From contig JBEPVZ010000004.1 in the NCBI GenBank assembly GCA_041690695.1, forward strand, positions 1 to 52,494: DNA of 52,494 nucleotides, read 5' to 3'. The notes beneath the pieces are model-generated. The model made no database searches, was not told the origin of the DNA, and saw nothing but the letters and a program-made list of their open reading frames with translations. This DNA comes from Candidatus Daviesbacteria bacterium (GTDB taxonomy: Bacteria > Patescibacteriota > Microgenomatia > Daviesbacterales > UBA10151). The translations under genes and the position numbers were made by a program. Positions 3,379 through 18,461 of the stretch are shown piece after piece (within the stretch, counting starts at the first letter, position 1; each line of letters opens with the position of its first letter).

Positions 3379-3594
3379 ATGTTAATTAATATTCCCCCCC
3401 AAATTTTAGGTCTCAACCACTTTGCCAGTCTTTTTAATTCGATCGTGTTAATTGGAATCTTGATTGGGATCGAACTTTTTAAAGCCGAAGCGCCTCACAA
3501 AAAACAACTTGATATCAAAGTTTTTTATCCGATCTCCTGGATCTTATTACTACTTTTAATCTATTTTCAGTTGAGTAAATTTATAAACCTATGA
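3379..3594 (+). CDS. small membrane protein (2 TM)
   Basis: 71-aa hydrophobic ORF whose stop overlaps the next start (ATGA). Confidence 0.35.
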   Translation: MLINIPPQILGLNHFASLFNSIVLIGILIGIELFKAEAPHKKQLDIKVFYPISWILLLLLIYFQLSKFINL

Positions 3595-4310
3595 GATATC
3601 GATCAACCTTAATTAACCTTTTTCAGATGCTTTTTTTGTCTAAATTAAGCTTTTTAATTAACCCTAAACTAGGCTTATTTGCGACCTCAAGCTTACTCAT
3701 AATCTCGCTTTTAAATAGTCTTTTTCAAAAAGCTACTAAAAACCTGGTCTGTTTGACTAGTATTGTCTTTTTAGCTCTTTATACTGAATATGCTTTACCA
3801 ATCCGGGATCCTTTTTCCCGAATGATCGTCATTTATTCAGTCATTTTGATTGGAATTATCAGTTACGCAAAAATCTGTCAATTAAATTTAAAAAAACTGG
3901 TATTTAGTAAAAATAAATCTCTAAGGCAACTCTTAATCTTATTTGGCTTTGGATTAATCTGGGGAGGATCACTTTATCTAATAGCTGGGCCAAACGCCAT
4001 TAATATTAAAACGGATTTAAATTGGTTATTAATTTTGAGCCCGCTCATAGCCTTGATTGAAGAGTTATTAATTCGAGGTTTAATTCAAGCTCAAGCCGAA
4101 AAGTTAACTAATCCTCTGATGGGGCTTATCTACGCTTCCCTAATTTGGTTTAGTTTTAATCTGTCGGGAAATATACTTTTATCCGTTATTTATGGCCTAA
4201 CTGGCTTTGGATTATCTTATATCTATAAGTTAACTCGTGATTTAAGATCAAGTTATGCCGTTAATTTAGGAATGAAGTTTGGCTTATTAATGCTTATCCG
4301 ATTCTTTTAA
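3591..4310 (+). CDS. CPBP (CAAX/Abi)-like intramembrane protein, His-less variant
   Basis: 239 aa, polytopic; CPBP motif 1 present (IEELLIRGL) but the protein contains no histidine at all. Confidence 0.55.
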   Translation: MRYRSTLINLFQMLFLSKLSFLINPKLGLFATSSLLIISLLNSLFQKATKNLVCLTSIVFLALYTEYALPIRDPFSRMIVIYSVILIGIISYAKICQLNLKKLVFSKNKSLRQLLILFGFGLIWGGSLYLIAGPNAINIKTDLNWLLILSPLIALIEELLIRGLIQAQAEKLTNPLMGLIYASLIWFSFNLSGNILLSVIYGLTGFGLSYIYKLTRDLRSSYAVNLGMKFGLLMLIRFF

Positions 4311-4508
4311 AAATCTCCAAACTAAACAAGCGATAAAAGACAGTCCAAAACAGATTATTCCGAAAGTATCTTCCCTAATCCAAGGAGTCAGATGAGTTAG
4401 CTGCCAGGATAGAGTCCAAGGGTGAACCTCGGCATTAACGGCAATATAAACCCAACCGGCAAAGCCAAATAAGAAGATTGTAAAAGAAAACGCCTTTAAA
4501 ATCTTCAT
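4287..4508 (-). CDS. small membrane protein (2 TM), uncertain
   Basis: 73-aa hydrophobic ORF; convergent 24-nt overlap with the CPBP-like gene. Confidence 0.3.
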   Translation of the reverse strand: MKILKAFSFTIFLFGFAGWVYIAVNAEVHPWTLSWQLTHLTPWIREDTFGIICFGLSFIACLVWRFLKESDKH

Positions 4509-4535
4509 TTAATAAGTATATCGCATTTTACCTGG

Positions 4536-4564
4536 TTGACAACCTTTGGAATAAATTATATAGT
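4536..4564 (+). promoter_or_regulatory. sigma70-type promoter TTGACA-N17-TATAGT
   Basis: TTGACA at 4536-4541, a 17-nt spacer, TATAGT at 4559-4564; a GTG at 4572 lies 7 nt downstream. Confidence 0.5.
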
Positions 4565-4571
4565 CATTGTT

Positions 4572-5039
4572 GTGAAAAGAACTATAACTATTTTATCTCT
4601 CGCTTTTGTCGCTACTTTATCCTTATTTTTAGTTTCAACCAAAACTGCTAGTGCTGCTGGATTAACCTTAGTCGGTGGAACAGTTCATCTTCCTAATAAT
4701 GTTTTAATAGCTGGCGCGACCGTGACAGTTAGCTGTCATCACGGTAGTCAAGTCAATTCAAAGACCACTCAAACTGGAGTTGGTGGAGGTTATTTAGTTG
4801 GTTATCCTCAATCGTTATGTGCAATTGGCGATAGTGTTGTTGTCTCGGCTGTTAAAGGTAACCAAAGTGGTCAAGCCGCTGGCACAGTTCACAATGTTAG
4901 CCAACAGCAAACATTTAATGTTGGATTAAGTGGTGTAACCGTTACTATTCCTGAATTTGGACCAATCACCGGTGGAGTTGCTGCTCTATTCTCAACTGGA
5001 TCTTTCCTATTTTTAAAGCGACGTAACTCTTCAAAATAA
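4572..5039 (+). CDS. secreted protein with PEF-CTERM-type C-terminal sorting signal
   Basis: From GTG 4572 the N-terminus reads as signal peptide KRTITILSLAFVATLSLFLVSTKTASA. The C-terminus is PEF-GPITGGVAALFSTGSFLFL-KRR. The ORF track starts at TTG 4536, but that codon is the -35 box. Confidence 0.65.
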   Translation: MKRTITILSLAFVATLSLFLVSTKTASAAGLTLVGGTVHLPNNVLIAGATVTVSCHHGSQVNSKTTQTGVGGGYLVGYPQSLCAIGDSVVVSAVKGNQSGQAAGTVHNVSQQQTFNVGLSGVTVTIPEFGPITGGVAALFSTGSFLFLKRRNSSK

Positions 5040-5048
5040 TTCTTCGAC

Positions 5049-5969
5049 ATGGTTGTCGAGTCGGGATTCAAACAGTTTCTTATTAAGTTAGTTCTATTTT
5101 TAGGTTTATTTATTGTTTTATCGGGTTTAATTGGCCCATGGGTAATCTCAACTCGGCTGCTTTATCATTTTGGCTTCTTTATCTATGGCGGTTTAGGCAA
5201 AGTGACCTTATTTGGGAGTATCGTCTTTGTCCTACTATCTCGCCAGAAGCTTAGGCTAGTCAAAAAATATAGCTATAACCGGCTTAATCTACTAGCCCTA
5301 ATGGGGGCATTTTTATTAATCCCCAGTTTTTTTGAGGTTGGCCGACGGCTTCTTCAATATTCCGATTGGTCAACCAATATTGGATTAACCTTAGTGGCAC
5401 ACTTATTAATCATTGTGATGATTATTTTGTTAATAATTGGCAGCTTAGGAGCTAACTTAATTACTGGCTTTTTATCAAAGCTTCAAAGGGAGCTTTTAAT
5501 ATCGACAGGCTTATCGCTAATCTTTTATTTTAGCTTTAATCTAATCTTTCAGCTTTGGCCACTTTTAAGTGGCATCGTTTTAACAATTGTTCAATTTATT
5601 TTAAATTTAAACTTCTCGCCGGTTGGCTTTATTCCCCCGCGAACCCTGGTTTTATCGCATTTTGCAGTTGAGGTCGGTCAAACTTGCTCGGGAATTGAGT
5701 CACTATTTTTATTTTCAGCCTTATATATTTTAATCGCTTGTTTAGACTGGCCAAAATTTAATCATAAAAAGATTATTTTAGTCTTTTTTCCAGTCTTAGT
5801 TGGATTATTTTTGGTTAATATCTTACGAGTTTATCTGATTATTATAATTGGCCAGCTAATCTCGCCTTACATTGCTGGTCAACTTTTCCATACTTATGCG
5901 GGGATGATACTATTCATTATCTATTTCATTGCTTTTTGGCAGCTTTTCTATAAAAGGCTCTTGAAATGA
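5049..5969 (+). CDS. exosortase/archaeosortase family transpeptidase
   Basis: 306 aa, polytopic; ordered Cys (VGQTCSGIES), Arg (NILRVYL) and His (LFHTYAG) motifs characteristic of the family; 9 nt downstream of the PEF-CTERM cargo. Confidence 0.75.
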   Translation: MVVESGFKQFLIKLVLFLGLFIVLSGLIGPWVISTRLLYHFGFFIYGGLGKVTLFGSIVFVLLSRQKLRLVKKYSYNRLNLLALMGAFLLIPSFFEVGRRLLQYSDWSTNIGLTLVAHLLIIVMIILLIIGSLGANLITGFLSKLQRELLISTGLSLIFYFSFNLIFQLWPLLSGIVLTIVQFILNLNFSPVGFIPPRTLVLSHFAVEVGQTCSGIESLFLFSALYILIACLDWPKFNHKKIILVFFPVLVGLFLVNILRVYLIIIIGQLISPYIAGQLFHTYAGMILFIIYFIAFWQLFYKRLLK

Positions 5970-5981
5970 CAGGGATAATAT

Positions 5982-7289
5982 ATGAAAAAACTATTTAAAC
6001 ATTTTTATCAAGATAGCCTCTATCGAAATTCAATTTATCTGATGCTCAGTACCGCCATCATGGCCGGTTTTGGCTTCTTTTTCTGGCTCTTAAACGCCCG
6101 ATTGTTTACTACTGAGCAGATTGGTCTGGCCACCACTTTAATTTCGGTTGTGACTTTAATTGCCAGTCTTAGCAATCTTGGTTTAAATACTGGTTTAATC
6201 CGTTATCTGCCTAAATCGGATAAAAAGAATAGCCAGATTAATACCGCTTTTACGATCGTAATCGTCGCCTCAATATTGGTCGGGATCGTTTATTTATTGG
6301 GTATCAACTGGTTTTCTCCCAAATTAAATTTTTTGAAGGACAATTTAACCTATCAATTAATCTTTATTATCTTAGTCGTCTTTATGTCTCTAAATGGCAT
6401 ATTAGACAGCATCTTCATCGCTTATCGCTCTAGTGTCTATGTTTTACTTAAGAATTCGATTTTAAGTGCTATTAAACTGGCGTTGCCTATAACCTTAATT
6501 GCCTTAGGATCTTTTGGAATATTTGTCAGCTTTGGGCTTGGGGTAGCGATCGCTTTTTTAATTGGCTTGAGTTTATTAACTTACAAATTTGACTATTCGA
6601 TCTTTTTTAGTTTTGATAAACCGATTATCCGTCAAATTGCTAGGTTCTCTTTTGGAAATTATCTGGCGGGATTTTTAAATTCTCTACCGACTCTGATTTT
6701 ACCGATTCTAATTACCAATAAACTCGGACCTCATATCTCGGCTTATTATTATATAGACATAATGATCGCCAACCTAATCTATATTATTCCCCAAGCCGCC
6801 ACCCAATCCCTCTTTGCGGAAGGCTCTTTCTCTGAAGACAAAATAGGGTCACTTTTAAAACAGGCCGCCAAAATTACTTATGGATTGATGATACCGGTCA
6901 TAATAGTAACCATTTTTGGAGGACATTTTATCCTCAGTGCTTTTGGAAAAGAGTATGCCAATCAAGGAAGTGTATTTTTGAGTTTACTAGCGATTTCGGG
7001 AATATTTTTAGCTATAAATAATATATTTTCAACAATCCTCAGAATTCAACACCGAGTTAGAACTCTAATTATTATAAATTTGCTAACATTTAGTCTCGTA
7101 ATGTCCCTGAGTTACTTTTTAATTAAAAACCTTCTTACAGGTCTAGGTTTTGCTTGGCTAATTAGCCAGTTCATCGCTAGTCTAGTTTATATATTGATGG
7201 TATCGAAAAAGAGAAAGCTACTCAAGAAAGAACCGAACGATAAACTTTTAAAAACTCTTTTGCGATTACAGGTGCGTCAAATTTTTTAG
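5982..7289 (+). CDS. MOP-superfamily polysaccharide/oligosaccharide flippase (Wzx-like)
   Basis: 435 aa with about 12-14 TM helices; typical Wzx size and topology; sits among glycosyltransferases. Confidence 0.65.
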   Translation: MKKLFKHFYQDSLYRNSIYLMLSTAIMAGFGFFFWLLNARLFTTEQIGLATTLISVVTLIASLSNLGLNTGLIRYLPKSDKKNSQINTAFTIVIVASILVGIVYLLGINWFSPKLNFLKDNLTYQLIFIILVVFMSLNGILDSIFIAYRSSVYVLLKNSILSAIKLALPITLIALGSFGIFVSFGLGVAIAFLIGLSLLTYKFDYSIFFSFDKPIIRQIARFSFGNYLAGFLNSLPTLILPILITNKLGPHISAYYYIDIMIANLIYIIPQAATQSLFAEGSFSEDKIGSLLKQAAKITYGLMIPVIIVTIFGGHFILSAFGKEYANQGSVFLSLLAISGIFLAINNIFSTILRIQHRVRTLIIINLLTFSLVMSLSYFLIKNLLTGLGFAWLISQFIASLVYILMVSKKRKLLKKEPNDKLLKTLLRLQVRQIF

Positions 7290-8286
7290 CCCAGGCAATG
7301 GAACTTTCTCTGTACTTTTCTTTATCTTTAGAAATTTTCAATATTTTTTTAGCTATATCTCTAGGATCAGTAGGGTCGGCAAATAAACCTGATACCCTTT
7401 CTTTTACAGCATCAGGCACTCCACCTGATCTAGAAGCTATTACGGGTATACCATAAGCATTAGCTTCTAAATAAACGATACCAAACCCTTCTATATCATT
7501 TGGTAAATCCAATGGAGCCATTGCAAAAATATCTAAGGAGGGATAAAACTCTTTTATCTTCTTCTTTTCTGATATATTACCCAAATATTTCCATTTGAAG
7601 GTGACATTTTTCAGTAAACTCAAAATAAAATCTTTTTCTGGACCATCCCCCGCTAACTGATAAACAAAGTCTAATTCGTACTCTTTTTCAAGGATACTGA
7701 GAGCTTTAATAATATTAGGAATATTTTTTCGTTTTACAAATCTGGATATAGTACCAATAGCTAATCTTTTTTGCGGGGGTTTTTTTATATTTGCAAATTT
7801 TGCAAAGTTAATCGCTGGAGTAATAACTTGAACTTTTTGTGGAGCAATATTAAAGCTTGACAGTATTAAATGCTTTACATAAATACTGTCAACAGTAATT
7901 AAAGAGGCTTTATTAAAAACTTCCTGATAAAGTTTTAGTCTATAGCCTTTTAAGGAGCTTCTAGTCACTTCTAACCCATGACATGTCACTACAAAATTAG
8001 TTCCTCGATAAAACATCGCTGGATCAGAATGCCAAAAATGGATAATATTATAATGAGACAGGATTCTAGTATTATAAAAGCTTTTTTTGCTAATCAATTC
8101 GAATAAATTAACTCCAACAAAATGGGGTAAATATCTTAGTAATAGCTTAATAAGCATATTTTTCTTATTTTGCCAGTCAACTTCTTCAACTTTATTATTA
8201 ATACGGAGTTGATCGGCAATAGTGGAAGCAAAGCTTTGGATACCTCCAATATTGTTTAAATATGGTACGACGTAAAGTATTTTCAT
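7222..8286 (-). CDS. glycosyltransferase family 4 (GT-B)
   Basis: 354 aa; C-terminal EGFGIVYLEANAYGIPVIASRSGG motif (the E-x7-E region of GT4). Confidence 0.8.
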   Translation of the reverse strand: MKILYVVPYLNNIGGIQSFASTIADQLRINNKVEEVDWQNKKNMLIKLLLRYLPHFVGVNLFELISKKSFYNTRILSHYNIIHFWHSDPAMFYRGTNFVVTCHGLEVTRSSLKGYRLKLYQEVFNKASLITVDSIYVKHLILSSFNIAPQKVQVITPAINFAKFANIKKPPQKRLAIGTISRFVKRKNIPNIIKALSILEKEYELDFVYQLAGDGPEKDFILSLLKNVTFKWKYLGNISEKKKIKEFYPSLDIFAMAPLDLPNDIEGFGIVYLEANAYGIPVIASRSGGVPDAVKERVSGLFADPTDPRDIAKKILKISKDKEKYRESSIAWAKKFDAPVIAKEFLKVYRSVLS

Positions 8287-10472
8287 TTGTATATTTCTGA
8301 TCTCGCATTATTATAAATGAGATCTTTTGTATCCTCTAGAAAATCAGTTGGGGTGTTATAACTAATAACTTTATTATTATAGGTGCCAAATGCTCTTTGA
8401 GAATAAATATTGGTAGATGATAGATATACATACGAGTTCTTGGGCATTAAGAATGGGATAAGAGTATATGATAAATTATTAAGAGCTGGGACTGTAGAGA
8501 ATTTTTGTTGAGAATATCTATCTAAGGATATTTTATCCTGGCCTTTATAGTGACTCTCTAACCAAAACATGCTTTCCAGTTCTGCAGCATGTAAGTAGTA
8601 CCTCTCATAGTAATCACCTTGATTATCTAATTGTATAGTGCGGTCTGGACCACCGACAATTTCATAAAAATAACCTATGTAAAATAGTAAAGAAAAAATA
8701 AGAAAACAGGTCAGAGGTAAGGACTGATATCGTTGGGGTAATCTTCTAAAAACGCGTATACCTCCTAAAACTCCACCTAACGACAGTATCACTAAAACCT
8801 GCTGATATAACCTATCCATACCATAGTCTAATGAGGCAAAGGGTAGTAAAACCACAAGTACTAACATTACGAGGCTTGATAGGCCCATTACAAACATTTC
8901 TGGGTAAAAATTACTATTCCTAATAAAATTATATAAATACAAACCTAATCCAATTAATATTGATATTCCAAGAAAAAGAATTGAAACAAGATGGAATTTA
9001 GATATAATCGTAAAAATTGAATTGTTAGTATTTGGAAAGATGTTCGCTCCAACATAATAAAGGCTATAGCTAGAAGTATTTTGAAGACCTTTCCCCGCAA
9101 ATTGGAGATATTTATTAATTAAGTTAGCTGTATCCTCTGATCCAAATAAAGGGATATTTTCAGCATGAACATCTGCATTGAAAAGATTATATTGTGTATG
9201 TATTGATTTGGTAACAAAATCACTAATACCACTCGAAATACCGGTAAATTGAGAGTACCATAAAAACATAAAAATGAATAATATCATAAGACTTAGAAGG
9301 CTTACCGGATATTTTGATCTGTATGATTTTGACTTAATCTTCCTAAATATCAAAGAAAAAATATAACTGAATAAAATTAAGGAAAGAGCAATGTAGCTTG
9401 TCGAATAATGAGATAAGATCATTACAATGCCGAAAAGCAAAAATAGAGTTTTTCTTCCAATATTATTTAAAGATTTATCCACAATAGACATAATTACTAA
9501 ACCAAAGAAGAATAAAGATATTTCCATTCTAGTATAGTTTGGGATTCCAACTAAAAAAGAGGAAAAGGAAACGAAAAAGATACTGGCTAAAAAACTAACA
9601 AGATTATTATAGAACCTGCTAGAAATATAAAAAACAATTACCGGTACAAATGAAAAGATCATTGGGTAGATCAGTTTAAAAATATAAGGATCGCTAATTG
9701 TGATAAATGAAGATAATATAGTTGGCAATATAGTCACGCTTAACATTGCGTTATATGTATGGTTAAAATTCAACAATGACCAGTGCATAGTACTTTTTGT
9801 TACTTGAAATATTTGATATTCGATAAACATATCAGAACCGGTAACAAACCATCCTCTTAAAGAAAACATGAGCAGCAAGGACAAACTAATTAAATATACG
9901 CACCAAACTAAAATATTGCTTGTTATTTTTTTCCAAGCAAAGTTAGCTACTATGCAAAAAATGCTAATTCCGGAGAGAGCAAACATCGTTAACGTATTGC
10001 TCTGATGATTATTTAGCCGTATAGCACCAAATATTGATAATAAGATAACTACCAAGCAATAAAAAATGGCGACTAAACTTTCTATATTAATCTGTGGCAA
10101 GTTGATATGTAAGCTGGATTTATGTCTATAAAATATAAGGAGACAGCAGGGAATCAGTAGGTTATATAAAGTCGCTATATTTAAAAAGACGAGGGGATGA
10201 GTAAAAAACTTTCCCATACCCCAATTCAATGCTAGTCCACTCAGCATTAATATCGCCAACCCTAAACCCAAGGCATATACAAAATTTATCACACTAGTGC
10301 TATCTTCTTTTTTAAAGGTGGGAAGTATTAAAAGTCCAGGAACAAAAAGGAACAAAACAATTGATAAAAATGAACGAATAAAAATAAGATTTATATTAAA
10401 TATAAATAGCAAATCTACTATTAACAAACTGCTAATTATAAGTCGGGTTAAAAAGTTTTTAGTTATTTGCAT
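8283..10472 (-). CDS. large polytopic membrane protein, candidate GT-C glycosyltransferase or glycan polymerase
   Basis: 729 aa; more than 14 hydrophobic segments by eye plus a roughly 130-aa soluble C-terminus; starts and stops overlap the flanking GT4 genes. Confidence 0.45.
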   Translation of the reverse strand: MQITKNFLTRLIISSLLIVDLLFIFNINLIFIRSFLSIVLFLFVPGLLILPTFKKEDSTSVINFVYALGLGLAILMLSGLALNWGMGKFFTHPLVFLNIATLYNLLIPCCLLIFYRHKSSLHINLPQINIESLVAIFYCLVVILLSIFGAIRLNNHQSNTLTMFALSGISIFCIVANFAWKKITSNILVWCVYLISLSLLLMFSLRGWFVTGSDMFIEYQIFQVTKSTMHWSLLNFNHTYNAMLSVTILPTILSSFITISDPYIFKLIYPMIFSFVPVIVFYISSRFYNNLVSFLASIFFVSFSSFLVGIPNYTRMEISLFFFGLVIMSIVDKSLNNIGRKTLFLLFGIVMILSHYSTSYIALSLILFSYIFSLIFRKIKSKSYRSKYPVSLLSLMILFIFMFLWYSQFTGISSGISDFVTKSIHTQYNLFNADVHAENIPLFGSEDTANLINKYLQFAGKGLQNTSSYSLYYVGANIFPNTNNSIFTIISKFHLVSILFLGISILIGLGLYLYNFIRNSNFYPEMFVMGLSSLVMLVLVVLLPFASLDYGMDRLYQQVLVILSLGGVLGGIRVFRRLPQRYQSLPLTCFLIFSLLFYIGYFYEIVGGPDRTIQLDNQGDYYERYYLHAAELESMFWLESHYKGQDKISLDRYSQQKFSTVPALNNLSYTLIPFLMPKNSYVYLSSTNIYSQRAFGTYNNKVISYNTPTDFLEDTKDLIYNNARSEIYK

Positions 10473-11634
10473 ATTCGCTAATGGAATCCTGATATAAAAG
10501 TAAGGTTTCTTTGGCGTTATTACTCCAGGAGAATTCTCTTGCCCTTTTTATAGAGAATCGTGCAAGTTGCTCCGTTAGTGAACTGTTCTCCAATAACTTT
10601 AAAATAGTTTTAGCCACACGAGGATTTTTGCTATTTAAAAGAATACCACTATCAAGAAGAATCTCCTTGGGACCACCTAAATCCATCGCTAGGATCGGTA
10701 GTCCCGCAGCCATTGCTTCGAGAACGTTATTACCAAAAGGTTCATACTCTGCCGGATGAATAAAAAGATCTGCTGATCTATAGTAGTTGATTAGTTCTTT
10801 GTGTGATACCCACGGTACAATGCGTACATAATTCTCTAGTTTAAGTGTTTTTAAGGTTTCTAATATTTTTTTCTGATACTCGGATCCTTCAGTGAATCCT
10901 CCTCCGACAAAAAGAAAAAGAATGTTCTTCTCTCTCTTTAAAATTTTGGGTATTGCTTCTATAATCAATAGAGCATTTTTCCTTTTTACAAATCTTCCTA
11001 CATAAAGAATAACTTTTAATTTAGAATCAATCTTTAATTTTTTTCGCATAACGATCTTACTAAAGCCTTGTTTGAAAAATATTTTATTCACACCGTTATA
11101 TATCACTTTGACCTTTTTCTTCTCTTTTTCATTTAATGACAAATTATTTAGTATTTCATCTTTCATAAAATTAGATGTTGTTATCACTAAATCACTTTTT
11201 TTAATTAGAATTTTATCAATTAGTGCGGCTAGAGGAAAGAAAATCAGATTATATAAAAGACTGCCCTTTTGAGATTTATAAACAGAATGCATTTTTACAA
11301 CTAAAGGTTTCCTTGTAAATAAAGCATTGAATAATCCAAAGGGCGAACAGATATGCACTAAATCTTTTTGTATTTTCGCACCCACATAAATAGCTTTTAA
11401 GTTAAACACAATATGATTAAATGGGAAGATCTTCGGTACTAATAACCTATGGATAGTTAAATCACCTTTTGTTTCCATAGCAGGAGTTGTTGAATCAAAT
11501 CTAGCGCAAAGCAACTCCACATTACACAACTTCTTTAGCTCATTCGTTAGCTCGAAATAATGAATACCTAGCCCTCCGGCCACAAACGGAGGATATTCCA
11601 TACAAATGATTAAAACTTTTATCTTTTTTTTCAT
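10459..11634 (-). CDS. glycosyltransferase family 4 (GT-B)
   Basis: 391 aa; N-terminal GGLGIH motif and C-terminal EPFGNNVLEAMAAGLPILA motif. Confidence 0.8.
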   Translation of the reverse strand: MKKKIKVLIICMEYPPFVAGGLGIHYFELTNELKKLCNVELLCARFDSTTPAMETKGDLTIHRLLVPKIFPFNHIVFNLKAIYVGAKIQKDLVHICSPFGLFNALFTRKPLVVKMHSVYKSQKGSLLYNLIFFPLAALIDKILIKKSDLVITTSNFMKDEILNNLSLNEKEKKKVKVIYNGVNKIFFKQGFSKIVMRKKLKIDSKLKVILYVGRFVKRKNALLIIEAIPKILKREKNILFLFVGGGFTEGSEYQKKILETLKTLKLENYVRIVPWVSHKELINYYRSADLFIHPAEYEPFGNNVLEAMAAGLPILAMDLGGPKEILLDSGILLNSKNPRVAKTILKLLENSSLTEQLARFSIKRAREFSWSNNAKETLLLYQDSISEYANN

Positions 11635-13499
11635 ATCTTATAAATCTCCAACAATCGTGAGGAAATATTTCCCCAATCGTAATCCTTGATAAACGGGTAA
11701 TAAGCTTTAATATTTTTTCGACTCTTTTCATCTAAAATCATTCCGATTCTTTGAGCAATTTCTTGAGCTTTTAAATTAACTCGATAACCATTGTGGCCTT
11801 CTATTATTAAGTCTCTGGCGGCATTATCTCTATGATTTATAGCAATAACCGGTATTCCAGAGGCATTAGCTTCTATAACCACAATACCAAAGCCCTCTCG
11901 AGTCGATGGTAAAACAAAGATTCTAGACGATTTTATTAATGCATAAAGTTTTCTCTCGTCTTCCAGAAAACCTTTAAAAATAACATTAGAAGTTAACTGC
12001 AGTTTTTTTGTTAAAGCTTCTAGCGTTTTTTTCTCAGGACCATCGCCAACTATTAAACATCTTATTTTGGGGTGAGTTTTACGAGCTAAAGCAATAGCCT
12101 TAATTAAGATATCGACATTCTTATGTGAGATAAGTCTTCCCGCAAAAATAACATCGCTCTTTTCATTTGAAGGTATTATTTTGCGGATTTTATTAATATC
12201 AATTCCAGCCGGAATAGTGTAAATCTCTTTTTTTGAGTGGAGTTCTTTGGTTAACTTCTTAGTAGTATGTTTAGAGATTGAAATAATCTCATCCGGCAAT
12301 AGAACGCTTAGTTTTTCAATTCCAGCTGCCACAATTCCCATCTTACCTAAATACTCCCCCCAGTACTTTCTACCCCAAACCTCATTCCAAGTCACAATCA
12401 TCTTCTTCTTTTTAATTAGGCAGACTATCTTAATTGGGAACAAAATCAGATGAGGCATGTGGTCAACATCTATGACATCAAAGTCCTTGGTAATTAATTT
12501 TAAACAAGCCGATCCAAACATAACCGCCTCTTTAATAGATCTTCTTCTTCCAGCGTAAAGTGGATAGTAGCGACTAATCCCATGCAAATGAACTCCATTC
12601 TCAATTCGATCCTTACTACCCTGCCACCATTTCATTGAGTAAATATGAACCTCATGACCTTTTTGAGCAAGTCTTTGAGAAATCTCATAAATCCGTTTCT
12701 CTTTGCCACCTTTGTTATATGGGTAAATTGAATCAGTTACTATAGCGATTTTTAGTTTTCGATCTTTGAAATGTCGTTTAATTGGTTTCCACATTAGATT
12801 TTTAAATAACATACTTAAAATTGAAACGCCATCTTTTAATGAATCTATCTTGGTTTCACCTTCCCTCATCTCATATGTGATTGGGACCGAGTAAATCTCA
12901 TACTTTAAAAGAGTCATCTTAGTTATCATCTCCATCTCAATTGAAAAGCCATTGGACTTTAAATGATGTTTTAACTCATCAATAACCTCTTTTTTCCAGG
13001 CAAAGTAGCCACTCAAAACATCAGTGACATTGGCTCGGTAAAACTGTCTAACTAAAAAAGTATAAATCCAATTAACCATTCGATTTTGAAGTTTAAAGGC
13101 GTCTTTTTTAATCTTGCCACCTAGCCTTGACCCAACCACCACATCACAAAAGTTATTTTCAAGTGGCTCGATTAATCGAAAGATCTCCTGAGGACGATAA
13201 GTATTGTCACCATCTAACATCACCACATAATTTGTGTCATCAGATAAAGCATTAAAACCCGCCAAAATAGCATTGCCCTTACCCCGTTTTGGTTCGTAAA
13301 TAACTCGGGCACCTTTTTCCTCCGCCACCTGAGCCGTTCGATCAGTAGAGTTGTTATCGATTACTAAAACTTCAGTTTGGTAACCACGTTTTTTTAAGAG
13401 TTTTAACGGGATATCCTCAATAACTTTTACAATCCCCTTCTCTTCATTATGACAAGGAATAACAATGGCAATCTTTTTCATCATTAGTTTGGTATCCAA
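11631..13499 (-). CDS. fused GT2 (polyprenyl-phosphate sugar synthase-like) and GT4 glycosyltransferase
   Basis: 622 aa. The N-terminal 240 aa carry IVIPCHNEE...VIDNNSTD...MLDGDNTY (Dpm1-like GT2). The C-terminal 370 aa carry EGFGIVVIEANASGIPVIA (GT4). Confidence 0.75.
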   Translation of the reverse strand: MDTKLMMKKIAIVIPCHNEEKGIVKVIEDIPLKLLKKRGYQTEVLVIDNNSTDRTAQVAEEKGARVIYEPKRGKGNAILAGFNALSDDTNYVVMLDGDNTYRPQEIFRLIEPLENNFCDVVVGSRLGGKIKKDAFKLQNRMVNWIYTFLVRQFYRANVTDVLSGYFAWKKEVIDELKHHLKSNGFSIEMEMITKMTLLKYEIYSVPITYEMREGETKIDSLKDGVSILSMLFKNLMWKPIKRHFKDRKLKIAIVTDSIYPYNKGGKEKRIYEISQRLAQKGHEVHIYSMKWWQGSKDRIENGVHLHGISRYYPLYAGRRRSIKEAVMFGSACLKLITKDFDVIDVDHMPHLILFPIKIVCLIKKKKMIVTWNEVWGRKYWGEYLGKMGIVAAGIEKLSVLLPDEIISISKHTTKKLTKELHSKKEIYTIPAGIDINKIRKIIPSNEKSDVIFAGRLISHKNVDILIKAIALARKTHPKIRCLIVGDGPEKKTLEALTKKLQLTSNVIFKGFLEDERKLYALIKSSRIFVLPSTREGFGIVVIEANASGIPVIAINHRDNAARDLIIEGHNGYRVNLKAQEIAQRIGMILDEKSRKNIKAYYPFIKDYDWGNISSRLLEIYKI

Positions 13500-13948
13500 A
13501 AGTGAATTGATTGCTCAAGATCTATTAAATTAACAACGACTTCAACCCTGGTAAATTTTTTCGGCAGTGTAAAATCCTGACTAATAGTTTGATATTGATC
13601 TTGATTTAAAGTTGCCGAACTGGTACTGATCGGGATTATATTCTCACCATCCTGGAGATAAACTTCATACGGGTAGGTCATAGTTTTATATTCAAGATTA
13701 TGAATTGTGAATCGAAAGCTTTGTGACTTATTTAAAGCTAATGATTTCGGTAAATTTAAGTGATCTTCAAAATAAAGCTCAGTAAAGGTCTCTGGTTCAT
13801 ACAAAAGATGCCAAGCATGGAGCTGATTAATAATCGGTTGCCAGTGGAAAAATAAATCACCACCCCAGACTAAACCGGCCAGTAGTAAACTAGCTACAAA
13901 AAAGCCCACATAGTTATGGGATGTTAGTTGCCTGCTCTTTAAAGCCAT
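13484..13948 (-). CDS. membrane-anchored hypothetical protein
   Basis: 154 aa with one N-terminal TM helix and a beta-rich-looking soluble part; 16-nt overlap with the downstream GT2-GT4 gene. Confidence 0.4.
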   Translation of the reverse strand: MALKSRQLTSHNYVGFFVASLLLAGLVWGGDLFFHWQPIINQLHAWHLLYEPETFTELYFEDHLNLPKSLALNKSQSFRFTIHNLEYKTMTYPYEVYLQDGENIIPISTSSATLNQDQYQTISQDFTLPKKFTRVEVVVNLIDLEQSIHFWIPN

Positions 13949-14038: not shown

Positions 14039-15481
14039 ATGAAAGGTTTAAATTTTAGCCCCTTAATCCTTTTCCTTGGTATCATTGGATTATTATCTTT
14101 AGCCGCTATCTATTACTTCTCCACCCAACTACTTAACCCCACCCAGACCGTTGTTTCATCAACGAATTCCGGAGCCGCAAACTCCTCCACGGTCTTTTAC
14201 GGCGCCAATACGGATATTTCTAATCTGCTTCCCAATTCACCCTTCTATGTCAAAAACTCCAAAGGTCAGGATTTAATCGATATTGCTCATAACTTGGGTA
14301 TCAACTTATTTCGAGTCACGATCATTAATAATCGCTATCCGGATAAAGCTCCGAGTCGGTCGGATTGGGATTATTTATTTAATAAGTTGAATAAAAATCA
14401 TATTCAAGTAATTTTATTACCCGAGTTTTTAAATAGCGCCGAATATACAAAACCCGGCTCCGATGAGTTGTCTGATAACTATTTAAGTTTAATAAAAAGC
14501 TTTATTAATACCAGCGCTATTAATTACAATAATCCGGCCATCTTTGGTTTTGATATCCGTAATGAACCTTCACTAACTTCAAATAATCTCGACAAACTTG
14601 AAGAGGCCGCTCAAATTGTCAAAGATAAATATCCCAATTTAAAAATTACCGTTGGCAGCTGGAAAGTTGAAACTGGCAAGATAGATCCTAAATCTGGTAA
14701 AAAACTTTATAAAGCTAATCCAGCTGACGGCGCAAAATTAGTTAATATTGTTGACTACTACTCACTCCATATTTACGGCTTTGATCGACCATTAAAAGGC
14801 CCCTATCCCGATCCTTATAAATTAACAACCGATTACTTAACTACAGTCAAAAGTTATGCTCAAAATAAGCCAATATTAATAGAAGAGTTCGGAGCTGGTA
14901 ATGGGACCGATATTAATGATCAGGAAACGATTGGTAATCCTAATCTACAAGCGAGAACTTACGAAGGAGTTTATAAAGCGGTTGAGGATATGCATTCCCA
15001 AGGAGTACTCGGGGCACTAGCTTGGCTGCTCTATCCTAGAACTCATGATCCGGATGGCTGGACAATTATTGATGATAACGGAAACCACCTTTATCCAGCT
15101 GCTTACGTTTTACAAAAACATGCCACAGGTAATTCAGATCAATCAGTTGATTTATCTCCGAGTGATTCGGCAAATTATATTTATAGAAATTCTGATAATA
15201 ATAAAACCGTTAATTTAAAGGTTGGCGATACTATTGGCTTAGCTTTAAATTTAGATAAGACTGCGTCCTATATGCTTTTAACCAATAATACTAACGTTTC
15301 AGCGATTGAAGAGCCGATTATGTATTACTCAACCAAACAGTATTATAAAGCCGTTATTAAAATTGTCGGTAAAGGTACGGATAATTTAATTGTCACCACT
15401 CTCCCAAATTGTCAGAATAATTCCGATTGCTCAACAGCCATTATTCCAAAATTTAAGTTAAATATTAGTGTTAAGGATTGA
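14039..15481 (+). CDS. secreted/anchored glycoside hydrolase family 5-like enzyme
   Basis: 480 aa; N-terminal anchor; FDIRNEPS (acid/base NEP), LHIYG (His-x-Tyr) and ILIEEFG (nucleophile) motifs in GH5 order; extra C-terminal domain. Confidence 0.65.
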   Translation: MKGLNFSPLILFLGIIGLLSLAAIYYFSTQLLNPTQTVVSSTNSGAANSSTVFYGANTDISNLLPNSPFYVKNSKGQDLIDIAHNLGINLFRVTIINNRYPDKAPSRSDWDYLFNKLNKNHIQVILLPEFLNSAEYTKPGSDELSDNYLSLIKSFINTSAINYNNPAIFGFDIRNEPSLTSNNLDKLEEAAQIVKDKYPNLKITVGSWKVETGKIDPKSGKKLYKANPADGAKLVNIVDYYSLHIYGFDRPLKGPYPDPYKLTTDYLTTVKSYAQNKPILIEEFGAGNGTDINDQETIGNPNLQARTYEGVYKAVEDMHSQGVLGALAWLLYPRTHDPDGWTIIDDNGNHLYPAAYVLQKHATGNSDQSVDLSPSDSANYIYRNSDNNKTVNLKVGDTIGLALNLDKTASYMLLTNNTNVSAIEEPIMYYSTKQYYKAVIKIVGKGTDNLIVTTLPNCQNNSDCSTAIIPKFKLNISVKD

Positions 15482-15992
15482 CCACTTCTCCGCCACCCAA
15501 AACAGCCGATCCACGAATAATTAGCCGTCCTTGTTCATCCTTACTAGTCGGGCTGTTAGTATGATTTGCAAAACCGCCTAATACCCCAACCACCGAGCTA
15601 CTGACCAACCAAGTCTCAGGCACGATAATCTTAACCCCTCCAAAAACGGCCTCAACATCTAAATAAGCGGTTTTATCTTTACCAATTTTGCAATCAGTTA
15701 AATCAATCTCTATTCCCCCAAAAATTGCTGAAATCTTGCCTTGACTAAAGTTATTAACTTTAACTTTCGGATTAAGACCATTAAAAACTGCTGAGTAAGT
15801 AAAATTATCTTGACTATTATCTTGATTGGCTTGGCTGAAGTTAGGATGACGATTATGACCGGATAAGATCTTAACTCCAACTAAAATAATTATGACCGGC
15901 CAAAAAAAGTGAAAGATATCAAAACCAAAAAAGGCGCTTAAGCCAATGACAACTAAAACTATTCCAATAATTGTTCGTCCAGAGTAATCCAT
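15471..15992 (-). CDS. LiaF-like cell-envelope stress protein
   Basis: 173 aa with two N-terminal TM helices and a C-terminal repetitive beta domain (FGGIEIDL...FGGVKIIVP) resembling the LiaF C-terminal domain. Confidence 0.5.
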   Translation of the reverse strand: MDYSGRTIIGIVLVVIGLSAFFGFDIFHFFWPVIIILVGVKILSGHNRHPNFSQANQDNSQDNFTYSAVFNGLNPKVKVNNFSQGKISAIFGGIEIDLTDCKIGKDKTAYLDVEAVFGGVKIIVPETWLVSSSVVGVLGGFANHTNSPTSKDEQGRLIIRGSAVLGGGEVVNP

Positions 15993-15993
15993 A

Positions 15994-16395
15994 TTAGTAA
16001 TTCTTAAACTTCGGTGTGTAATTAACTAACCAATTATACCAGGGTAAATGATTAAGTGACCACTGTTCAACAATTGGTGAATTAACGACAGTTAAACCTT
16101 TCGTCCAAATAGAAACCAAAACAAAAAGCGCCAGCACCGTAACAATCAAACTTGACCCCGGCCCACGACCTAAGATTATTTGAACACCAGCTAATACCAA
16201 AAGTAGTGGCCAATAGCTAATAATAACCGGCCAGATATTCCAAGATACGATTCCGATGCTGTTAAAAAATAAGGTCATCCCGACAAAAATAAATAGCAAA
16301 CCCCAGACCACATCCAGAGAATCATGTTTCGGCTGGCGGCGAAAATTATGATGCCAATATTTTAAGTCAGGCTCGACGGTTTCAGTATCTTCCAC
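15994..16395 (-). CDS. membrane protein (LiaI/LiaF-type TM region)
   Basis: 133 aa with 4 hydrophobic helices; 1 nt upstream of the LiaF-like gene. Confidence 0.45.
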   Translation of the reverse strand: MEDTETVEPDLKYWHHNFRRQPKHDSLDVVWGLLFIFVGMTLFFNSIGIVSWNIWPVIISYWPLLLVLAGVQIILGRGPGSSLIVTVLALFVLVSIWTKGLTVVNSPIVEQWSLNHLPWYNWLVNYTPKFKNY

Positions 16396-16412: not shown

Positions 16413-18461
16413 TCAGGTAAACCCGAGTCTTTTTAAGCAGAACAAAACAGCTTGATTTAAACTTTGGAAATCTTTTTCAGACAAAGTCTCAGCATCGGTT
16501 TGAAGGTTTGACAATGTTCTAAGACTCTGCAGAAAATAGTTCTCCCTAATAACTAAACCTTCCGGACCTTCTAAGTATTGGTTGACCCGTCTCCTTACAG
16601 CTTCATCAACATAGCCTTGATCTTTGACAGCAGCTTCAATTTCGGGAGCTCTTAGAACTCTCATTCTAGTGCTATGTTTAATGATATCTTCATCCTTAAT
16701 TCGAACGATTGCTTGAGACTTTGGACCGATATACTCTAACGCTTTAGCAGCTTTTGGGGTAGAAACCGTTGTTTTAAAACCAATCTTTTTTGATGTTTCT
16801 CCTAACTCAGTCAAATGACTTTTTTCAAAGTCGATCAGTTCTTGTTGGCATGCTATTAATGTATCTAGAAAGCTCTGATTATTTGCAAAGTCAAAGAAAC
16901 CCTCAAGTAAGTTAGGACTGGTTATAAACGGAACCATCATTGGTCGTGTTAAAACCAGTCTTCTCAGAACTGAAGCTAGTGGCCTTTTTAGATCTAAGGT
17001 CATAGCTTGATTAATCAGTTCTGTCATAGTTAAAGCCTCTCCTTTTGAGCCACTAGCGATCCGGCCATCAAAACCGATCGAGGCTCCGGAAGTTTGGATG
17101 GCGTCCTCAAGACCGGGTAAAGTGTTGACGATGCTAATCGCATCAGTTGTATCACCCGAGCCATCGACAAAAATTAATTTTGGCTGTTGACCTTCTAAAC
17201 TAGTCTGGCTTCGGGAAATTGTGACCAAAGCCACCACGGCCTTAGCAGTCGCGGTTAATGAGCCATTTTTTTCTAAAACCTTAACCCCTCGAGCGTCTAG
17301 AAAGTTAAAACCGGATCCAGCCCACGCAGGATTTAAGCTATCAATCAATGGCCGAGCATTTGGCAAAGTTTCCGATTCAGAAGTAATTTCGACATCAAAT
17401 CCAATCTGACTTAAATCTTGCCTGGTTTGAACAGCCATCGCTGCAAAGATGTTGTAAGGACCTTGGTCTAAAAGTTCCATAGCCGACTTAGTCAACACGC
17501 TCTCTTCTTGTCTCGATCGATAACTGGCAATAATCTGGTCAATCGGAATTTGAGCTTGATCAAGTTGAGCAGCAGTTTCATCTAAGCTTAAACCTAATCG
17601 ATCCGAGAGGCTGACTAGCGCTCCGGCGGCCCTAGGGCCAGTATTGTTATTAATTAAAGTCAGAGGCTCAGATCTATTCAGATTAACTCTTAAAAGATCA
17701 GCCGAAGCTAAAAGCAGGAGGTGACCTAAATGCAGCTCCTTACCCATAGTGACAGCCGCTATAATCGCCGGCGGGACAGAGTGTTCTTGATCGGGATAGA
17801 CTATCGCTCCCATAATTTTTGAAACATCTTTATTAACACCACTGCCATATAACCTAATCGAGGTGGAAGGCCTTAAACGCTTAGTTTTTAAGATCTGTTC
17901 TTCACTCATAGTCTGAACTGAAAAACCGCCCGCAATAACCTCTCCAACAGTTTCCTGGTAAAGTTGACTATTGGCTGATTGATTCTTTTCGGCTAAATTG
18001 ACTCGGTATCGATCCCAAACCAGCTCTTCGACCATATGTAAGTAAGAGATTAAGATCGCCTCAACCGTAGTGGGTTTATCATTTAATAAAATTGTTCCTA
18101 AACTTCCCTCAGGAAAATCAGGAATTAATTCGGCCGGATCGAGTCTAGCTTGAGTGTTAACGGGAATATATAATTTACTCTTTTTGTCATTAACATCCGC
18201 TAGTTGGCAACTTAAACCGGACTGAGCCCGGATACTAATCACTAACCGACCAAATCGTCTAGCCCAACTCTCGGCTTGCTCAGACTGCATGGCTTCTAAC
18301 ATCAGGTGAGTTAAAGCTGTAAAATTCGGCCGCGGCGAATCTAAGCTCACATAAAGAGCTTGTGATCCAGCATCATCAATCAATCGATCCTTGGTATTAT
18401 TCCAAGTCGCTTCGATAATCTGGTCCCGATCATTATCAAAAATTTTAGTAAGTGTTTCCAT
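16413..18461 (-). CDS. divergent class-I aminoacyl-tRNA-synthetase-like protein (ArgRS-like)
   Basis: 682 aa. It has HLGH at residues 244-247, then INNNTGPRAAG where ArgRS has N.GD.G.Q. It has FVDGSGD, and GSKGEALTMTELINQA where ArgRS has the KMSK-equivalent region, and it ends LKRLGFT. Confidence 0.4.
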   Translation of the reverse strand: METLTKIFDNDRDQIIEATWNNTKDRLIDDAGSQALYVSLDSPRPNFTALTHLMLEAMQSEQAESWARRFGRLVISIRAQSGLSCQLADVNDKKSKLYIPVNTQARLDPAELIPDFPEGSLGTILLNDKPTTVEAILISYLHMVEELVWDRYRVNLAEKNQSANSQLYQETVGEVIAGGFSVQTMSEEQILKTKRLRPSTSIRLYGSGVNKDVSKIMGAIVYPDQEHSVPPAIIAAVTMGKELHLGHLLLLASADLLRVNLNRSEPLTLINNNTGPRAAGALVSLSDRLGLSLDETAAQLDQAQIPIDQIIASYRSRQEESVLTKSAMELLDQGPYNIFAAMAVQTRQDLSQIGFDVEITSESETLPNARPLIDSLNPAWAGSGFNFLDARGVKVLEKNGSLTATAKAVVALVTISRSQTSLEGQQPKLIFVDGSGDTTDAISIVNTLPGLEDAIQTSGASIGFDGRIASGSKGEALTMTELINQAMTLDLKRPLASVLRRLVLTRPMMVPFITSPNLLEGFFDFANNQSFLDTLIACQQELIDFEKSHLTELGETSKKIGFKTTVSTPKAAKALEYIGPKSQAIVRIKDEDIIKHSTRMRVLRAPEIEAAVKDQGYVDEAVRRRVNQYLEGPEGLVIRENYFLQSLRTLSNLQTDAETLSEKDFQSLNQAVLFCLKRLGFT

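Follow-up and report, generated by a model that had tools for sequence, protein, structure and literature searches.

Exosortases are widespread in bacteria, and we know of none with a defined acceptor or product; the only relative that to our knowledge has been studied is the archaeosortase ArtA of Haloferax volcanii. Its substrates carry a PGF-CTERM signal and include the large S-layer glycoprotein, and the acceptor is thought to be archaetidylethanolamine, via PssA/PssD. The mechanism proposed for ArtA runs through a thioester and then an acceptor (10.1101/2023.06.07.544157; PMC7157517), with Cys-173 taken as the active-site residue (PMC7157517), and the suspected triad of exosortases and archaeosortases is Cys, Arg and His (Haft preprint, 10.1101/2023.06.07.544157). 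Other enzymes have been paired with sorting signals, namely XrtE with VPEID-CTERM (TIGR04162/TIGR04161) in Rhodobacterales, a pair known from in-silico curation alone, ArtC with PEF-CTERM (TIGR03762/TIGR03024), ArtF with PEFG-CTERM (TIGR04293/TIGR04296) and XrtA/EpsH with PEP-CTERM in the exopolysaccharide loci of Gram-negative bacteria. Here we analyse a stretch of 52,494 nt from a Candidatus Daviesbacteria bacterium (contig JBEPVZ010000004.1, positions 1 to 52,494; G+C 38.8%), referred to below as the window, in which positions 4,536 to 5,969 hold a gene for a small secreted protein, the cargo, followed by a gene for an exosortase-family enzyme. With a probability of roughly 0.7, we read this region as a dedicated exosortase/archaeosortase-type sorting cassette whose subfamily lies outside the curated models. 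It is an exosortase subfamily that lacks a curated model and has a sorting signal of its own, and so a new flavour of a well-known type of system and not a new type. The literature searches found no paper pairing 'exosortase' with 'Patescibacteria' or 'Saccharibacteria', and none mentioning 'VPEID-CTERM' or 'PEFG-CTERM'; papers pairing 'archaeosortase' with 'DPANN' exist, and the matches to 'XrtE' were unrelated (germ-cell, engineering).

An exosortase-family enzyme outside the curated subfamilies

The enzyme gene (5049..5969, + strand) starts with ATG and encodes a polytopic protein of 306 aa, which scored 46.3 bits against TIGR04178 (cut-off 23, residues 207-298) and 37.4 bits against PF09721 (cut-off 25.7, residues 58-299). 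An earlier note on this DNA, made from the letters alone, had assigned the protein to the exosortase/archaeosortase family, and both scores bear it out. The note had also picked out a Cys, an Arg and a His as lying in the order of the catalytic residues. These are Cys213 (TGC 5685-5687, in VGQTCSGIES), Arg260 (CGA 5826-5828, in NILRVYL) and His281 (CAT 5889-5891, in LFHTYAG), all on the + strand and putatively catalytic. They were found at the family positions: C213, S214, G215, S218, N257, R260 and H281 were invariant across the 38-sequence enzyme alignment, and in a pairwise alignment the Cys, Arg and His coincided with CSGIE, NILR and FH of the Limimaricola XrtE curated by the Prokaryotic Genome Annotation Pipeline (PGAP). 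The misalignment of the three residues that the note had named as a refutation was not seen, and by its sequence the 306-aa protein is a true member of the family. An AlphaFold2 (AF2) model, with a mean predicted local distance difference test score (pLDDT) of 90.9, was all-helical, with about nine long helices and a short beta-hairpin loop just before Cys213. No relative in the PDB was found by sequence search or by Foldseek of the AF2 model.

The subfamily models gave a different picture, as every match of the window enzyme fell below its cut-off. XrtE reached 49.9 bits (cut-off 150) with the match confined to its exosortase half (positions 169-293 of the 516 in the profile), XrtA reached 32 bits (cut-off 208) and EpsH 30 bits (cut-off 105.6), and none of the archaeosortase models in NCBIfam (ArtA, ArtC and others) was matched at E<=1. 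When 38 homologues were scanned, all 38 matched XrtE (best E 2e-24), 15 matched ArtC, five ArtA and three ArtF (at E>=7e-4), and TIGR02602 and TIGR03109 gave weak matches in 37-38 of them. None of the 38 attained the curated cut-off of the XrtE, ArtC or ArtA models. A tblastn search against 72,556 plasmids returned nine matches, all annotated as xrtE.

The cargo and its C-terminal signal

The cargo gene ends 9 nt (5040-5048) before the enzyme gene. Its open reading frame (ORF; 4536/4572-5039, + strand) encodes 155 aa from GTG 4572, made up of a Sec signal peptide, a beta-sandwich and a C-terminal sorting signal. When the ORFs and the translation were re-read, the ORF positions, the signal peptide and the end of PEF, helix and basic residues given earlier were all as described. 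The C-terminus reads ...GVTVTIPEFGPITGGVAALFSTGSFLFLKRRNSSK in the window translation, and the tail, as read from the end of the ORF, ...VTIPEFGPITGGVAALFSTGSFLFLKRRNSSK. The signal is tripartite (4947..5036, + strand), with I-P-E-F-G-P-I-T-G, a hydrophobic helix and KRRNSSK, and the PEFG motif directly abuts the helix with no spacer. In signals that are processed by membrane-embedded enzymes, the motif likewise adjoins the helix without a spacer (Haft preprint, 10.1101/2023.06.07.544157).

The same arrangement was found in the cargos beside related enzymes. Among 69 non-redundant neighbouring cargos, 67 carried [VI]-P-E-[FYLM]-G-x-[IL]-[TG]-G followed by about 15 hydrophobic residues and an R/K cluster; the P and the E were present in all 67 of these tails and the G in 62. 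This conservation at the helix boundary contrasts with an identity of 22-38% across the rest of the cargos. A profile hidden Markov model (HMM) was trained on 65 tails from other loci, with the window tail excluded. Against it the window tail reached 46.4-50.1 bits (E 1e-13), compared with 7.5 bits for the highest-scoring of 500 shuffles and 2.9 bits for the runner-up among 656 stop-to-stop ORFs of the window. Because the tail scores so far above both, it is, on this sequence evidence, a specific signal, with exactly one substrate on the 52-kb contig.

In another explanation, the tail is a generic C-terminal membrane anchor, as the earlier note had allowed for, and stands beside an exosortase gene by coincidence. 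The one NCBIfam match of the window tail indeed came from the LPXTG anchor model, of which it covered the generic transmembrane and basic stretch with a sub-threshold 15.4 bits, and throughout the cargos the matches to LPXTG/LAVTG anchor models were confined to the generic helix and basic part. A mere anchor is hard to square with an invariant P-E and a G kept in at least 90% of tails at the helix boundary of proteins that are otherwise 22-38% identical, with cargos in 45 of 50 loci that nearly always lie beside the enzyme gene, or with HMM scores of 46-50 bits against at most 7.5 bits for shuffles. We therefore give this explanation next to no credence.

In scans of NCBIfam (release 20) with the whole cargo, its tail by itself and 66 related cargos, no curated sorting-signal model fitted. 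The window tail had no match to TIGR03024, TIGR04296, TIGR04161 or TIGR02595 even at E<=10, and the 66 relatives gave two matches to PEFG-CTERM (best E 0.016), one weak match to VPEID-CTERM and three to PEP-CTERM. As a positive control, the Limimaricola XrtE cargo scored 30.6 bits on VPEID-CTERM, and archaeal PEFS/PEFP tails scored 10-12 bits on TIGR03024 (cut-off 23), so short tail models were detectable with the scan used. By comparison of motifs, the VPEFG signal stands as a sibling beside VPEID and PEF, with which it shares the V-P-E core, and lies outside the models of NCBIfam release 20. In about 20 of the 67 tails, for example those of the Saccharimonadia loci L034, L036, L046 and L044, an N-V-S sequon stood 2-4 residues before the PE, which could be an N-glycosylation site or merely a beta-strand pattern. 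The window tail has no N-x-S sequon at this position, and no STT3/PglB-type gene was seen.

The mature part of the cargo is one small beta-sandwich of about 100 aa, transthyretin-like or CarboxypepD_reg-like, with a weak Pfam match to CarboxypepD_reg. Its AF2 model was built on an alignment of eight sequences and is usable for the core only, with a pLDDT of 70 overall and 81-92 for core residues 31-105. In a Foldseek search, the matches were domains of the transthyretin-like and Cna-B-like kinds from surface proteins and pilins, at modest E-values (2e-4 to 2e-2). In the cargo alignment, the mean column identity was 21% and P127, the Pro of PEF, was the sole invariant column; C55, C83, E128 and G130 were conserved at 90% or more, which leaves two conserved Cys residues, C55 and C83.

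With GTG 4572 as the start, the signal peptide is MKRTITILSLAFVATLSLFLVSTKTASA|AG (codons 1-28, 4572-4655) and of the classic Sec type, and in the cargo alignment this start is in register with the MKK/MRK starts of the homologues. Since a Sec signal peptide results and the homologue starts line up, GTG 4572 was preferred, and TTG 4536 makes better sense as a -35 box, within a promoter-like site, than as a start codon. Seven nt separate the end of this site (TTGACA-17-TATAGT, 4536-4564, + strand; 11 of 12 consensus matches) from GTG 4572. A second site (TTGTCA-16-TATACT, 4542-4515, - strand; 10 of 12 consensus matches) precedes a gene for a 73-aa protein, and the two divergent sigma-70-like sites, both of them pattern matches only from a consensus scan, overlap within the 63-nt intergenic gap 4509-4571. 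The position of the + strand -10 box, 7 nt from GTG 4572, suggests a leaderless or near-leaderless cargo mRNA.

Occurrence across Patescibacteria and DPANN archaea

A protein search gave 95 clusters of the enzyme, those with names coming from Patescibacteria and Saccharimonadales. An exhaustive profile search extended this to 2,941 representatives at E<=1e-3 and to at least 218 clusters (50% identity) at E<=1e-30. The relatives are annotated in generic terms, as 'archaeosortase/exosortase family protein' or 'hypothetical'. For the gene neighbourhoods, 51 loci from species-representative genomes and several metagenomic contigs were collected, and their genes were mapped by jackhmmer on all ORFs. 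The cargo set was drawn from the neighbourhoods of enzyme homologues because direct searches yielded few proteins: a word-indexed search returned only three when queried with the cargo and eight when queried with its alignment.

In 45 of 50 non-redundant loci there were one to four cargo homologues, nearly all of them flanking the enzyme gene. The tail motif and the adjacency were thus conserved across the 50 loci, which supports the earlier proposal that the upstream protein is a dedicated cargo of the enzyme. The description of the cassette as one cargo and one sortase was correct for the 52-kb contig, as judged with the tail HMM, and does not extend to the relatives, which have one to six cargo genes. 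Arrays of three to six cargos with VPEFG or [IV]PEFS tails were found in the DPANN loci, downstream of a gene for a CPBP-like membrane protein. Two DPANN-type loci illustrate this layout: at L056:2277-7267 and L057:4005-6584, the CPBP gene is followed by six and three different secreted proteins, all ending in [IV]PEF[SG], a helix and RRKK, and an exosortase-flippase pair follows a few kb downstream.

In a rough neighbour-joining tree, with XrtE imposed as the outgroup, the window enzyme clustered with sequences from Microgenomates and Levybacteria-type metagenome-assembled genomes (MAGs). The Saccharimonadia formed a second clade, the DPANN archaea (Nanoarchaeota, Woesearchaeota) were the sister clade, and a Methanosarcinales sequence was basal to the DPANN clade and those of the candidate phyla radiation (CPR). 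Many record titles among loci L004-L044 ('uncultured Gammaproteobacteria', 'Acidiferrales', 'Weeksellaceae') are probably mislabelled bins or contaminant contigs; statements about hosts are based solely on the consistent labels for Patescibacteria and DPANN archaea. As far as gene neighbourhoods tell, these loci show that the VPEFG signal and the enzyme subfamily co-occur across Patescibacteria and DPANN archaea.

Relation to described exosortases and archaeosortases

The nearest curated model, XrtE, was the best-scoring one for all 38 homologues and the sole annotation among the plasmid matches. In both systems a small cargo lies directly upstream of the enzyme and has V-P-E-x-x abutting the helix (...RVPEIDALQGG...RRRRAA in Limimaricola), and in both the enzyme comes with a CPBP module. 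The two differ in score, with 49.9 bits for the window enzyme against the cut-off of 150 and E 2e-24 for the best subfamily member, and in architecture, since CPBP is fused C-terminally in XrtE whereas here it is a separate, His-less gene two positions upstream and the enzyme ends at residue 306. They also differ in signal, which here is VPEFG-x-I-T-G, with no VPEID-CTERM match for the window tail and a weak one for one of 66 cargos, and in hosts, which are Patescibacteria and DPANN archaea here and Rhodobacterales for XrtE.

The XrtA/EpsH systems are alike in their weak TIGR02602/TIGR03109 matches and in their location in a polysaccharide-biosynthesis locus, but the scores are well under the cut-offs, the signal there is PEP, and there are usually many substrates per genome, in contrast to one to six cargos clustered with the enzyme here. 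PEFG-CTERM with ArtF shares the literal four-residue PEFG core; however, TIGR04296 matched only two of 66 cargos (best E 0.016) and not the window tail, and ArtF matched three of 38 enzymes. With ArtC and PEF-CTERM, the shared feature is a PEF at the start of the helix. ArtC was matched weakly by 15 of 38 homologues (best E 2e-12) and at 43.8 bits (cut-off 100) by the Methanosarcinales relative (L053), the tail of which reads GVPEFPG. In contrast, the window enzyme had no ArtC match at E<=1 and the window tail no TIGR03024 match at E<=10, and the VPEFG group is set apart by the conserved Gly next to PEF and the subsequent I-T-G. ArtA has in common with the window enzyme the superfamily, the conserved Cys (Cys-173 in ArtA) and the logic of a tripartite signal. 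It differs in that the signal is PGF there and PEFG here, the window enzyme does not match TIGR04125 at E<=1, the conserved partners here are flippase and glycosyltransferase genes instead of PssA/PssD, and the ArtA substrates include a large S-layer glycoprotein while here the cargo amounts to a beta-sandwich of about 100 aa.

These comparisons bear on an archaeal-style alternative close to that favoured in the earlier note, in which an ArtA/ArtC-like enzyme would remove a PEF-CTERM helix from an S-layer-like glycoprotein and attach a membrane lipid to the new C-terminus. The window cargo does carry a literal PEF with a transmembrane helix and a basic tail, weak ArtC and ArtA matches were found in 15 and five of the 38 homologues, the DPANN and Methanosarcinales relatives have PEFG, PEFS or PEFP tails, and ArtA, the sole experimentally studied member of the family, carries out lipid anchoring (PMC7157517). 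The details point elsewhere. The window tail fails TIGR03024 and TIGR04296, although archaeal tails match the former weakly, so membership of the tail in PEF-CTERM as curated is not supported; nor is that of the enzyme in a curated archaeosortase family, with no Art match at E<=1, and both its best curated match and all nine plasmid matches were to the bacterial XrtE. The size of about 300 aa, which had been seen as an archaeal trait, does not discriminate, as the XrtA and EpsH models have 241-261 positions. The cargo is a single beta-sandwich of about 100 aa and not of S-layer size, which argues against maturation of a surface glycoprotein in the archaeal manner; no pssA/pssD-like genes were present among the Pfam-scanned neighbours, and the conserved partners are glycan genes rather than lipid genes. 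What stands of the archaeal link is the DPANN sister clade in the rough tree and the weak ArtC matches, but not membership of an archaeal family, and we regard the alternative as distinctly unlikely.

Glycan genes around the enzyme

The gene that follows the exosortase after a gap of 12 nt encodes a Wzx-like (Polysacc_synt/MatE) flippase (5982..7289, + strand; PF01943 43.5 bits, PF01554 38.3 bits), which is likely a functional partner of the enzyme. With gaps of 9 and 12 nt and a promoter-like site immediately upstream of the cargo gene, the layout is operon-like. A flippase gene was present in 19 of the 40 loci with at least 3 kb of downstream sequence, and in nine it was adjacent or fused to the exosortase gene. 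Exosortase-flippase fusions were found in two DPANN archaeal MAGs (L045:3980-6157 and L050:4001-6211) and in P0142, the reverse domain order in P0143, and a fusion of exosortase to a polysaccharide pyruvyl transferase (PS_pyruv_trans) in P0108. Another exosortase relative, P0189, had a weak N-terminal match to DUF1616, below the cut-off.

On the - strand, Pfam identified a GT4 glycosyltransferase (7222-8286) and a polytopic DUF2206 protein of 729 aa (8283-10472), and the order of flippase, GT4 and DUF2206 recurred in L001, L012, L018, L026, L044 and L057. The glycan locus continues in the window with a GT2-GT4 fusion glycosyltransferase of 622 aa (11631-13499, - strand), a small protein that matches DUF1616 weakly and below the cut-off (13484-13948, - strand) and a GH5 cellulase-family protein (14039-15481, + strand); it also holds a PMT_2-like GT-C protein, just under the Pfam cut-off, and further GT4s. 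The setting in a glycan locus had been noticed before and was confirmed by these genes, and the fusions to flippase and pyruvyltransferase in the relatives strengthen the link. Adjacency and fusion, as read from the sequences, tie the enzyme to glycan handling, and we take the tie to be real. Beyond the glycan genes lie a pair of LiaF-like membrane proteins (LiaF-TM/LiaF-like_C domains; 15471-16395, - strand) and, adjoining them, a 682-aa protein without a Pfam match (16413-18461).

The tie to glycans also bears on a simpler function, in which the exosortase would be a plain endopeptidase that clips the tail and lets the cargo go into the medium or the wall space without attaching it covalently again. 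The sequence itself requires no acceptor, and even for ArtA it has yet to be settled whether such an enzyme works as a transpeptidase in one step (10.1101/2023.06.07.544157). A detour through a membrane helix would, however, be needless for a protein that is simply secreted, the recurrent fusion and adjacency to flippase and pyruvyltransferase suggest coupling to a glycan substrate, and the substrates of ArtA and of rhombosortase gain a new C-terminal moiety (10.1101/2023.06.07.544157; PMC7157517). We consider simple release unlikely.

Genes upstream of the cargo

The recurrent gene order begins upstream of the cargo, with a small protein of two transmembrane helices (about 72 aa), the CPBP-like protein and a 73-aa protein of two helices on the opposite strand, followed by the cargo or cargos, the exosortase, the flippase and then GT4 and DUF2206 on the opposite strand. 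In the window, the first of these is a 71-aa protein (3379..3594, + strand), the stop of which overlaps the start of the CPBP gene, so that the two form a 'small-CPBP' pair; of 43 loci with at least 3.5 kb upstream, 19 had a homologue directly 5' of the CPBP gene, as did L002, L003 and L057. The 73-aa protein (4287..4508, - strand) is encoded between the CPBP and cargo genes, and phmmer/jackhmmer found homologues at the same position and in the same orientation in 15 loci. Its gene overlaps the 3' end of the CPBP gene by 24 nt. Neither the 71-aa nor the 73-aa protein had a match in Pfam or NCBIfam.

The CPBP/Rce1-like membrane protein itself (239 aa, 3591..4310, + strand) matched PF02517 at 37.0 bits (cut-off 22.4), and its gene lay within 4 kb in 21 of the 43 loci that had sufficient upstream sequence. 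In Rce1/CPBP proteins, catalysis uses a Glu together with the histidines within FxxxH and HxxxN. The window protein keeps EExxxR (EELLIR) and has no histidine at all. In the alignment of the cassette proteins, EExxxR was kept and the FxxxH and HxxxN histidines were lost in most CPR copies, and both motif histidines were retained in the DPANN locus L056 and in the C-terminal domain of XrtE. From these motifs, the window protein is probably not a canonical glutamic intramembrane protease. The idea of a 'split XrtE' was also tried; the window CPBP and the C-terminal half of XrtE aligned at EExxxRG only, and a common origin was unsupported.

It could nonetheless be argued that the CPBP-like protein is the real, myxosortase-like sorting protease and that the exosortase serves another purpose such as polysaccharide export. 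Enzymes of the CPBP family do sort MYXO-, JDVT- and Synerg-CTERM signals (10.1101/2023.06.07.544157), the CPBP gene often lies directly 5' of cargo arrays, and the window protein gave faint matches to MrtS/MrtP (E 0.03-0.06). Such a role is unlikely because the window copy has no His, and the motif-2 and motif-3 His are gone from most CPR copies. Moreover, myxosortase-type signals have an invariant Cys (10.1101/2023.06.07.544157) and the VPEFG tails have none, and CPBP is absent within 4 kb at about half of the loci while the adjacency of cargo and exosortase is near-universal. Taken together, we find this explanation very improbable.

Proposed mechanism and implications

If the region is a dedicated sorting cassette, as we favour, the cargo would be exported by Sec and its signal peptide removed after ASA. 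The C-terminal helix would then tether it, with the basic cluster inside and PEFG at the outer membrane face beside Cys213. Cys213, together with Arg260 and His281, would attack within or next to PEFG, releasing the helix and forming an acyl-enzyme, as has been proposed for ArtA. The acyl-enzyme would be resolved onto an acceptor, most likely a lipid-linked or surface glycan that is delivered by the Wzx-like flippase and may be built by the neighbouring GT4, DUF2206 and GT2 genes. A flipped lipid-linked glycan is favoured here because of the flippase and pyruvyltransferase fusions, and the glycan acceptor is the least secure point of the proposed mechanism. The outcome would be a small beta-sandwich protein displayed on the cell surface. 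The small protein, the His-less CPBP-like protein and the 73-aa protein would be accessory factors that may handle the substrate or the leftover peptide; the CPBP domain fused in XrtE offers a precedent for such a role of CPBP.

Several points weigh against this account. The scores of the subfamily HMMs are far below their cut-offs, and function is therefore transferred from the sequence matches at the family level only. A hand count of nine helices leaves the topology ambiguous, and the placement of Cys213 on the outer face is assumed from the family. For this subfamily, cargo cleavage and its site are inferences, as are the acceptor and what becomes of the cargo. The fusions come from metagenomic contigs, where a frameshift could in principle mimic a fusion, but four independent cases, in two domain orders, speak against such an artefact. 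Finally, the flippase was found in just 19 of 40 loci and the CPBP pair in 21 of 43 within 4 kb, so neither is obligatory, or else they are located further away.

A bolder proposal, which we put forward tentatively and regard as rather doubtful, is that the exosortase is a protein-to-glycan or glycolipid ligase common to CPR and DPANN episymbionts. It would join the cargo's new C-terminus at PEFG to a lipid-linked oligosaccharide handed over by the adjacent or fused flippase, giving a glycan-anchored beta-sandwich for display or host attachment, and the system would have moved between domains. If true, this reading would give a bacterial exosortase a defined acceptor for the first time.

The cassette is unusually compact, with a single promoter-like site and one gene each for a small cargo, an enzyme and a flippase, which makes it a clean test case for the acceptor of an exosortase, and the exosortase-flippase and exosortase-pyruvyltransferase fusions point to a specific, testable acceptor, a flipped lipid-linked glycan. 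A curated pair of HMMs, for the enzyme and for the VPEFG-type tail, would improve the annotation of many proteins that are now labelled in generic terms or as 'hypothetical'. The hosts of the cassette are presumably monoderm, ultra-small cells, and the envelopes and attachment mechanisms of Patescibacteria and DPANN archaea are poorly known. The subfamily described here marks a conserved feature of the cell surface in both groups.

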